Positions 8,425 through 9,887 of a DNA stretch of 11,339 nt are shown in pieces. The position numbers and the translations under genes were made by a program. The stretch is from a virus. Location of the stretch: the UHGV virus genome UHGV-0227772. One strand, given 5' to 3'. A model generated the notes under the pieces. The model was not told the DNA's origin and did no database searches. It was given only the letters and a program-made list of their open reading frames with translations. The stretch's first letter is position 1. Every line of letters begins with the position of its first letter.

Positions 8425-8892
8425 CTAATCTTGATCAGGTTCCTGCTTAGAATAATGTTTTCCAACAATAAATGCCGTAACCAATGCAACAAGATCTATT
8501 GAAACGAGAGTTCCGGCAAGAACTGTCTCCCCCATGACGCCAAAGACAGTGGCAGCTAAGATGATCAATATTGCCAACCAAAAAGCCTTTGTTTGACCAT
8601 CTCTGGCAATATCAATGCTATCAGCCACTGTTTTATGGCGATGAGCCTGCTCTTTTTCGGTCAACTCAACAAGTCGATTTGCAAGCCCAGGCACCAGTTG
8701 ATCATACTTTTTAAGCATTGAAGGTGGCGGAACAGGCCCCTGAAAATGCTGGCAAACAATAGCCCGCACCTGCGGACTATCCAAAACCCTGTTTAAGACC
8801 TCTGGATTTTCGATTACTCGAGAAACCAGTTCATTATCCTTTTGTTCTTCACAAGTGAGTTTGGTGTTCTCACTTTCTTTTTGATCTGGCAT
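8425..8892 (-). CDS. Membrane protein with a soluble N-terminal domain and two C-terminal transmembrane helices (DUF2335-like by recollection)
   Basis: 155-aa ORF. N-terminal motif QGPVPPPSMLKKYDQLVPGLANRLVELTEKEQAHRH, then hydrophobic segments AFWLAILIILAATVFGVMG and LAGTLVSIDLVALVTAFIVG. Convergent with int. Confidence 0.55.
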   Translation of the reverse strand: MPDQKESENTKLTCEEQKDNELVSRVIENPEVLNRVLDSPQVRAIVCQHFQGPVPPPSMLKKYDQLVPGLANRLVELTEKEQAHRHKTVADSIDIARDGQTKAFWLAILIILAATVFGVMGETVLAGTLVSIDLVALVTAFIVGKHYSKQEPDQD

Positions 8893-9073
8893 TGTTCAGC
8901 TTTTCAACGTTAACGGATACCATTGCTTTTTGGAAATCGCCTCTGATAGCCGCAGCATCCTGACGCAAAGCGGAAACTGGATTCGCTGGCATACCATTTG
9001 CTGAAACGACCGTCGGGCTCAGGGCTATAACCGAGCCAATGGCTTGTAACAAAGCCACACTTTTACGCTTCAT
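8870..9073 (-). CDS. Small secreted or periplasmic protein (67 aa) with an N-terminal signal peptide
   Basis: From ATG at 9071-9073 with AGGAG upstream: MKRKSVALLQAIGSVIALSPTVVSANG..., i.e. positive N-region, hydrophobic core and a VSA-type cleavage site. The track ORF starts 6 codons earlier. Overlaps the downstream membrane-protein gene by 23 nt, suggesting a two-gene operon. Confidence 0.45.
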   Translation of the reverse strand: MKRKSVALLQAIGSVIALSPTVVSANGMPANPVSALRQDAAAIRGDFQKAMVSVNVEKLNNARSKRK

Positions 9074-9555
9074 AGTCACTCCTGAGTTCAATGGGATTCA
9101 AAACGGATTCAAAGTGAATCTTGATAGCTAATTCTAATACCACATTATGTGGTTTTTCAACACGAAGAAATCACATCAAAAATCTCATTCGGAAAGCGAT
9201 ATGGGTAAACAAACTGGAATACTTTTCTGTCCTAGTAAGCTCACCCATGTATAAAAATGCTGTAAAATGCGTGGTCCTGTTTTGGGGAAAAGTTTTGGAG
9301 AGATTTTGGAGAAAGGAAAAAATTGAATAAATTCAAAATCCTGAAAGTGTCCCGCCTTATGAATAAGAAGGCAACAGAAATAGACGATTAGTGTTTTATA
9401 TTCAAAAGGTTAATAGCAAATTTGGCATGCTTTTTACTGTCGAGTAAACTGCATGCCTCTATCCATAAAATCAAACAGTTGCAATCTAATTTTGGAGAAC
9501 GTTTTTTCTTCTCCCTTTTAGTAAATCGCTATAAAAAACAACAAATGATATAAAA

Positions 9556-9887
9556 ATGAACAATCCTAATCCATGCATGACGTGTGGTGCCTGTTGTGCA
9601 TTTTCCGCGTCTCTTTTTACTGGGCTGAAGCAGATGATGCTGGCGGCACCATCCCCGTAACGATGACAGAACAAATCTCTCCGTACCATCGATGCATGCA
9701 GGGCACTAACCAGAAAAATCCTCGCTGTGTGGCCCTGTTCGGTGAGCCGGGAGTCAATGCCTGCTGCAGCATTTATGAAAATCGCTCATCCACCTGTAGA
9801 GAATTTCCGATGTCCGGCGAGAATGGTGTGATTAATGAAGCATGTAATCGTGCACGGGCGAAATACAGGCTACCCCCACTTTCCTAA
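9556..9887 (+). pseudogene. ykgJ: YkgJ-family cysteine-cluster protein gene with an apparent -1 frameshift in a T5 run
   Basis: Frame A from ATG 9556 encodes [21 protein letters not shown] (family-typical CxxCGxCC) and stops at 9658-9660. The rest ([63 protein letters not shown]...) is in the -1 frame, which the track lists as 9573..9887. The frames join if the T5 run at 9612-9616 were T6, giving about 110 aa. Confidence 0.5.

Follow-up and report, generated by a model that had tools for sequence, protein, structure and literature searches.

A predicted lambda-type attP and a separate DUF2335 moron beside the integrase gene of an Escherichia lambdoid phage or prophage

The UHGV virus genome UHGV-0227772 provided the stretch of 11,339 nucleotides analyzed here (the window), which comes from a lambdoid phage or prophage of Escherichia. 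Our subject is the DNA that follows its integrase gene, int: a cassette of two genes and the AT-rich DNA behind them. A first-pass annotation, made from the letters alone, had described there a minus-strand two-gene unit convergent with int, encoding a 67-aa signal-peptide protein and a 155-aa membrane protein, and had taken the roughly 460 bp beyond it (9092–9555) for the upstream region of the unit. All the features described are present, with small offsets in coordinates, and the minus-strand arrangement facing int is as stated. What the upstream region and its repeats belong to is a different matter, which comparison with other genomes clarified. Coordinates are those of the window unless a locus in another genome is named by its L or H number.

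Genes and signals next to int

The gene int (7230–8348, + strand) encodes a lambda-type tyrosine integrase with an arm-binding domain (Arm-DNA-bind_1, PF09003, E = 3.8e-21, residues 1–64) and a recombinase domain (Phage_integrase, PF00589, E = 4e-19). Its start is overlapped by the excisionase gene xis (6992–7261, + strand; Pfam Exc, PF07825, E = 7.1e-5), the RefSeq homologue of which is labelled excisionase. Beyond the int stop and pointing towards it lies the cassette, made up of a sigma-70-like promoter, a short leader, an open reading frame (ORF) of 67 aa, an overlapping DUF2335 ORF of 155 aa and a terminator hairpin.

The larger product, encoded at 8425–8892 on the − strand, belongs to DUF2335, as the first-pass annotation had expected; a hidden Markov model search with Pfam PF10097 gave 48.1 bits (E = 1e-12) against the family cut-off of 25 bits. 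It also matched phrog_3996, a 'membrane protein' family filed in the PHROG category 'moron', over 132 of its 155 residues (E = 6.5e-43). It is thus a full-length member with no difference from the PF10097/PHROG 3996 proteins, a family that itself has no assigned function. Alignments, hydropathy and an AlphaFold2 model bore out the conserved motif and the two C-terminal transmembrane helices that had been proposed for this protein. Hydrophobic 19-mers lie at residues 103–121 and 124–142 (Kyte–Doolittle 2.4 and 2.27). The model, with a predicted local distance difference test score (pLDDT) of 79 overall and above 90 over helices 70–119 and 123–149, places a short helix at 57–66 after a poorly predicted stretch (1–50), then the long helix 70–119, a tight turn and the second transmembrane helix at 123–149. 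The long helix bears the conserved motif PGxAxR...ExEQxHRH, which is preceded in DUF2335 alignments by a conserved GPxPPP, and leads straight into the first transmembrane segment, while the second transmembrane helix contains an Asp that is nearly invariant in the alignment. Because the protein lacks a signal peptide and has two transmembrane helices, the simplest topology would put the conserved helical region in the cytoplasm and have the C-terminal hairpin anchor the protein in the inner membrane. Relatives of similar length are very numerous, forming 7272 clusters at 50% identity (E <= 1e-3), and DUF2335 proteins also occur in phages of Staphylococcus, Leptospira, Xylella and Arthrobacter. 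Literature searches with PF10097, the WP accession and the phrog identifier returned nothing useful; the Tle1-like 'DUF2335 phospholipase' of three papers on type VI and type IV secretion systems was discarded, as it is unlike PF10097, a small protein with two transmembrane helices, and is probably a slip for DUF2235.

The partner ORF (8870–9073, − strand; ATG at 9073, stop at 8870–8872) overlaps the start of the DUF2335 ORF by 23 nt. It corresponds to a RefSeq gene of 204 nt, appears in the ORF listing in a TTG-extended form of 73 aa, and is under purifying selection in comparison with the Salmonella copies (dN/dS, the ratio of nonsynonymous to synonymous substitution, 0.15–0.25), which indicates that it is a real gene. 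Its family is narrow (30 clusters), carries the motifs L(L/I)xA(I/M)GS(V/I)(I/L)x(L/I)xP and RxDxxx(I/V)xxDF, and has no counterpart in Pfam, PHROGs or NCBIfam; AlphaFold2 returned two helices at low confidence (pLDDT 61.5). While the gene itself stands, the proposal that its product is a secreted, signal-peptide protein is doubtful. The window copy is loosely signal-like (MKRK, a 15-residue stretch of Kyte–Doolittle 1.86, then VSA), but this N-terminal segment is the best-conserved part of the family, with G13, S14 and P20 invariant, and the Pantoea-type and Klebsiella-phage copies have an Asp or Arg within it (FLSVMGSILDLYP, YLRAAGSILDIAP). A segment that is conserved, and in relatives too polar, argues against a cleavable Sec signal, and we favor a small protein that would act as a partner of the DUF2335 protein at or near the membrane.

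The small ORF also occurs solo, in the absence of DUF2335: Yersinia phage vB_YpM_39 and E. coli contigs resembling plasmid-prophages carry it in convergent orientation with an ORF6N/pRha gene (L005 3200–4342, L063–L065). The neighbor in the Yersinia phage was considered as an integrase and rejected, being an ORF6N/pRha protein.

The predicted promoter of the cassette is TTGAAA-18-TAGAAT (9160–9131, − strand), which matches the consensus at 10 of 12 positions; the −10 element is kept in the Salmonella copies L009 and L012, the −35 element in L009 only. The promoter spacer contains a perfect 6+1+6 palindrome, CCACAT-T-ATGTGG (9140–9152), partly kept in L009, which might be an operator. A Shine–Dalgarno sequence, AGGAG (9080–9084, − strand), stands 6 nt ahead of the ATG at 9073, and this sequence and the start context ACTCAGGAGTGACTATG are kept in both L009 and L012. 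Just past the DUF2335 stop, an intrinsic-terminator-like hairpin with a CCCCGG/CCGGGG stem and a U-run (8394–8419, − strand) agrees with the terminator proposed earlier. RNA folding against shuffled sequences, which was applied to the terminator, the leader and a hairpin in the far att arm, gave it −20.7 kcal/mol and a z-score of −4.17, with none of 200 shuffles equal. A scan for consensus terminators did not pick it up, probably owing to base-pairing of some of the U-run within the stem. Salmonella locus L009 has a hairpin and T-run at the same place with a different stem.

The predicted 5' leader contains the direct repeat GGATTCAAA twice, with an 11-bp period (9094–9102 and 9105–9113), followed by the inverted GTGAATC (9114–9120), as reported by the first-pass annotation. 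The repeat is a 17-bp insertion or duplication of the window lineage, missing from L009 and L012, and the leader showed no significant RNA structure (fold z +1.25). A leader riboregulator built on these repeats was therefore rejected; judged from this distribution, the repeat is incidental and not a conserved regulatory element.

The att core, its arms and the TTTTGGRGA boxes

The interval 9092–9555 is AT-rich, as previously noted, with a GC content of 0.33 against 0.478 for the window, and contains no credible ORF, only TTG-start frames at 9121–9330 and 9422–9553 that have no Pfam match. To find where its homology to bacterial chromosomes breaks, we used window 8340–9600 as a megablast query against 5426 complete E. 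coli genomes, the set from which all prevalence counts below are taken. In many genomes the match ran from int through the cassette and ended at 9371, where potC followed directly (L002). In others it began at 9360 and extended to 9582, with potB in front (L004). We then aligned the window, two int-side junctions (L002 and L003), the potB-side junction (L004) and the empty K-12 site (L019). The sole block common to the five sequences was the 12-bp core TGAATAAGAAGG (9360–9371, + strand), shared by attP, the K-12 attB at the potB 3' end and both prophage junctions, and the flanks swap around it as in attP x attB giving attL + attR. Comparison with an unoccupied site, which the first-pass annotation had suggested as the way to the core, thus located it. 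The swapping of flanks around a sole common block means that the window holds an intact attP-type junction with contiguous arms, and on this alignment evidence 9253–9555 is a predicted lambda-type attP for the potB/potC site. Contiguous arms point to either a free or circular phage genome or a joint between tandem prophages as the source of the window.

The int-proximal arm (P' by lambda convention; 9253–9359, + strand) stays beside int in lysogens (L002, L003). Together with the core it forms a 119-bp block (9253–9371) that was present in 1635 of the 5426 genomes. The distal arm (P; 9372–9555, + strand) is the one joined to potB in lysogens (L004), and a motif scan found in it a perfect consensus site for integration host factor (IHF), AATCAAACAGTTG, at 9469–9481. 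The only parts of the 460-bp region that belong to the cassette are those from 9074 to about 9245; the rest, 9253–9555, is the predicted attP with its core and both arms, and the reading of the whole region as cassette upstream DNA had to be given up.

The repeats in this region follow the same division. The three TTTTGG(G/A)GA repeats described by the first-pass annotation are present as TTTTGGRGA boxes in tandem in the int-proximal arm (9280–9288, 9293–9301 and 9304–9312). A fourth exact box, TTTTGGAGA, had been missed; it lies in the distal arm at 9490–9498, beside the IHF consensus. These are exactly four copies in the 11.3-kb window, where about 0.19 would be expected, and all fall inside 219 bp around the core, the trio on the int side at 48–91 bp and the fourth beyond the core at a distance of about 120 bp. 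We scanned IMG/VR for the triple repeat and sought Int homologues beside every match. The results showed that 71 of the 82 occurrences lie 12–70 bp downstream of an Int homologue on the same strand, the other 11 being simple repeats in giant-virus contigs or matches at contig edges. Six of the 71 are of the potC type (Int 97–98% identical), and the remaining 65 accompany Ints of 38–65% identity in at least 12 unrelated downstream sequence classes, which indicates different integration sites. Since the boxes adjoin divergent Ints at many sites, they travel with the integrase family and not with the core or with DUF2335. They belong, then, to the integrase system rather than to the cassette, and from their sequence and placement are best read as candidate arm-type Int sites. 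The literature did not link TTTTGGGGA to arm-type sites in enterobacteria.

The arrangement resembles that of lambda, in which the arm sites P'1–P'3 occupy one arm and P1 and P2 the other. In both systems an Int with an arm-binding N-terminal domain and a tyrosine recombinase domain is encoded by a gene whose start overlaps xis, and a short core is the same in attP and attB and is flanked by reciprocal junctions in lysogens. Here, the int-proximal arm has three tandem repeats at about 50–90 bp from the core and the opposite arm has one at about 120 bp, by the IHF consensus, the whole spanning about 230 bp. By analogy, the N-terminal domain of Int would bind the TTTTGGRGA boxes as it does P'1–P'3 and P1/P2 in lambda, and bending of the DNA by IHF would allow Int to bridge arms and core. 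The two systems differ in that the box, TTTTGGRGA, is unlike the lambda box, a single far-arm box was detected, the core is 12 bp long and falls within the potB 3' end, and int and its att arm are set apart by about 900 bp of foreign DNA; the system described here is known from sequence.

The results define a core and a candidate arm consensus, TTTTGGRGA, for a clade of enterobacterial integrases that includes the very common potB/potC prophages of Shiga toxin-producing (STEC) and enteropathogenic (EPEC)-type E. coli, with the block found in 1635 of 5426 genomes. They also expose an annotation trap: AT-rich, repeat-bearing DNA beside an integrase gene should be tested as attP before it is read as a promoter region.

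Several further observations concern the att region. The core falls inside the potB 3' end (window 9360–9391; L004 3990–4032; L019). In K-12, potB ends ...AAT AAG AAG GTG GAA CTC GAA TGA, overlapping the potC ATG, and in lysogens the phage arm supplies a replacement end, ...AAG AAG GCA ACA GAA ATA GAC GAT TAG. Because the prophage parts potCD from the potAB promoter, expression of potCD in lysogens must depend on transcription from the phage side. The distal arm contains a hairpin at 9424–9457 (15-nt arms, −18.9 kcal/mol, z −4.9, + strand) with no T-run after it; it may act on int mRNA as an RNase III site in the manner of lambda sib, or be a palindrome bound by a protein. In IMG/VR contig 2529292908_000002 (L121), the Int is 97% identical and the arm is unchanged, and other sequence follows past a partly altered core (TGAATAATCAGGTGATCC...), which suggests a prophage integrated at a secondary site.

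The complete attP-type junction, with int, the cassette and both arms, is present in five E. coli chromosomes, for example L001 (NZ_CP024618.1). A type III effector locus (espK, nleB, espN, nleL) comes after the joint. Its genes are part of the tail-fibre end of a prophage, as seen at the potB-side junction of strain D1. The joint in the five chromosomes looks like two prophages in tandem at potB/potC.

The cassette as a moron

The cassette occupies 8350 to about 9245 (− strand), between the int stop and the att arm, and its borders are revealed by a prophage that lacks it. In strain EC2 (L003) the same int (WP_000074971.1) and the same att arm are present and the cassette is precisely missing, with potC 166 bp past the int stop. 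Pairwise alignment of the window with EC2 showed that identity breaks at the int stop (8349) and returns at about 9245–9253. The cassette was found in 211 of the 5426 genomes, about one in eight of those carrying the arm block. About 1400 genomes have the block 9253–9371 and no cassette, and about 87% of same-arm prophages lack it. The K-12 attB is empty, with neither prophage nor cassette. The two genes are therefore accessory prophage cargo, as had been proposed, and not core chromosomal genes kept at this locus in prophage-free relatives. These comparisons support a model in which the cassette is a moron, a self-contained insertion of 896 bp that includes the whole cassette with its predicted promoter and terminator.

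We put the probability of the joint explanation, an attP at 9253–9555 and a separate moron at 8350 to about 9245, at roughly 75%; it is the best we have for the region. Some results pull the other way: there is one perfect IHF match, the distal arm yielded one arm-type copy (lambda has two), the predicted promoter is a consensus match, and the GC content of the cassette (0.43) hardly stands out from that of int (0.46) or of the window (0.478). The competing idea that all of 9092–9555 is the regulatory region of the cassette, with the repeats as operators or regulator sites, accords with its AT-rich, repeat-bearing position upstream but is contradicted by the comparisons and is the least credible of the alternatives we considered, as lysogens keep the cassette with potC DNA right of 9371, the block 9253–9371 occurs in the cassette-free genomes, the triple repeat tracks Int homologues and not DUF2335, and cassette copies elsewhere have no such repeats.

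Neighborhood comparison across related prophages, another of the checks suggested at first pass, showed that the cassette is variable and that the pair occurs at several phage positions. Judged from these loci, the gene pair is a mobile unit with at least five positions in enterobacterial temperate phages, and in every context examined an ORF of 65–74 aa overlaps the DUF2335 start. Apart from its place beside int, the pair lies past the tail-fibre genes at the end of Salmonella prophages (L009–L011), antisense in nin/Q regions (L012–L014, L017, L059, L060, L062), between cI and N and co-oriented with cI, the slot of rexAB in lambda (L015, L061), and inside the tail operon of Klebsiella phage vB_Kpn_RAH1 (L007). 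The RAH1 partner ORF (L007 2814–3008) is unannotated; it overlaps the DUF2335 start and was recognized by the family profile (E = 1.6e-8). A search of viral loci with a narrow alignment yielded for the most part this same cassette, truncated where prophage ends had been predicted.

In RAH1 a lipoprotein-like ORF (MKKVLLVAAIAVVLAGC...) follows DUF2335, all within the tail operon just before the tape-measure gene. An antirepressor-like ORF6N gene is often convergent with the cassette and directly downstream of it (L010 5514–6101, L011 5514–6080, L062 5364–5960, H159), and a PaaA2 gene lies close to the cassette in Salmonella locus L012.

Compared with the lambdoid morons HK97 gene 15, lambda bor and lom, and rexAB, the cassette is likewise an add-on in a minority of close relatives, has its own predicted promoter and terminator, and encodes predicted envelope proteins; one copy of the pair even occupies the cI–N slot in which lambda has rexAB. 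It differs in consisting of two overlapping genes that are unrelated in sequence and fold to gp15, Rex, Bor and Lom, and in its hardly distinct GC content. Both parts of the region, the lambda-type att site and the moron, thus belong to well-known kinds, and nothing in it is categorically new.

Possible roles of the pair, and the rest of the window

The anatomy points to an autonomous transcription unit capable of expression in the lysogen, a position and orientation independent of phage operons, a lineage downstream of cI and a predicted membrane location. The cassette would be expressed from the repressed prophage. Morons have varied host-benefit roles, and HK97 gp15 is a moron-encoded exclusion protein of the inner membrane (PMC3594210). 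Ltp, a superinfection-exclusion protein of phage TP-J34, is encoded beside int and expressed from the prophage (PMC3952083). By analogy with such proteins, the role we lean towards, tentatively and at less than even odds, is that the pair protects the lysogen at the membrane, by superinfection exclusion or by an abortive response. A bolder version, in which the small protein and DUF2335 form a two-component inner-membrane anti-phage system carried by a roving moron, and DUF2335 is a large unrecognised prophage defence family, appears somewhat more doubtful still. The evidence gathered does not discriminate between the functional readings, all of which are inferred. The comparison with Ltp, from a Gram-positive host, extends to a small envelope-associated product encoded beside int and ends there: Ltp is a lipoprotein outside the membrane, encoded inside the lysogeny operon, whereas the pair has no lipobox and no homology to it, and the cassette sits between int and att and converges on int. 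Weighing against protection, Pfam, NCBIfam, PADLOC and the literature assign no function to either protein, and homology in sequence or fold to catalogued defence or exclusion systems was not found. The PADLOC match reached only 15.6 bits (PD-T4-6, E = 0.002), and was rejected as chance because PD-T4-6 is a Ser/Thr-kinase protein.

A second family of explanations treats the pair as a toxin–antitoxin-like or addiction module, in which the small protein would neutralize or regulate a membrane-damaging DUF2335 protein and autoregulate through the palindrome, possibly doubling as an abortive-infection switch. As in type II toxin–antitoxin operons, the first of the two genes is small and overlaps the larger second, with the overlap conserved everywhere, and the spacer between −35 and −10 contains a perfect 13-bp palindrome. 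Toxin–antitoxin genes (Hok, HigB, PaaA2, ParE) are frequent neighbors, and the conserved Asp of the second transmembrane helix is embedded in the membrane. We nevertheless regard this as improbable: the pair has no homology to known toxins or antitoxins, Pfam, NCBIfam and PADLOC assigning neither protein to such a family, no DNA-binding fold is recognizable in the low-confidence model of the small protein, the small ORF occurs solo without DUF2335, and the palindrome is incompletely conserved in Salmonella.

Equally improbable in our estimate is a lysogenic-conversion factor that, like lom and bor, would give the host envelope or stress fitness unrelated to phages. The varied host benefits of morons (PMC3594210), the predicted membrane location of the product and the frequency of the cassette in cattle, STEC and EPEC-type strains are what such a factor would lead one to expect. 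One copy, however, lies in the slot equivalent to rexAB, and the breadth of DUF2335, with its 7272 clusters and its presence in phages of unrelated hosts, speaks against a host trait tied to one niche. A role in the cycle of the phage itself, in lysis timing, in recombination directionality or as an integration accessory, or in DNA injection, is very unlikely, even though the pair adjoins int and attP here, its membrane hairpin is loosely holin-like and some copies lie in tail or late regions, since most same-arm prophages do without the pair, its position is variable and never in a lysis cassette, and it usually runs counter to the phage operon around it, with a predicted promoter and terminator of its own. 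Whatever its role, this two-gene moron is compact, at about 900 bp, and naturally polymorphic, its DUF family is huge and unstudied, and the natural pairs of prophages with and without it make a clean comparison of function easy. The DUF2335 pair is thereby a testable lead as a possible prophage exclusion module.

The remaining genes of the window fit a lambdoid genome. At the left lies a replication-initiator-like gene (478–1455, − strand), separated by YdaT- and YdaS/Cro-like genes from a pair encoding a PaaA2-like antitoxin (E = 1.7e-19) and a ParE toxin (E = 4.8e-16) at 2622–3147, beside the immunity region. A DUF1391 gene stands between the ParE pair and the gene for an 829-aa exonuclease (4441–6930). 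Scans of the window found no Rfam families and no tRNA. Right of the att region, a ykgJ-like gene (CxxCxxCC, PF03692; 9556–9887) is frameshifted: it starts in the frame opening at 9556, meets a stop after 34 codons and continues the remaining domain in the frame of ORF 9573–9887, while unbroken homologues of about 88% identity are annotated in other E. coli. The interval 10177–11336 encodes a 157-aa phrog_6585 protein and a 170-aa protein with a YadA membrane-anchor domain (E = 1.5e-16). ORF 11139–11336 has no match in Pfam and, judged from its translation, resembles the first part of a tail-fibre assembly gene. These genes mark the right end of the window as the tail-fibre end of a lambdoid genome, with its typical cargo.

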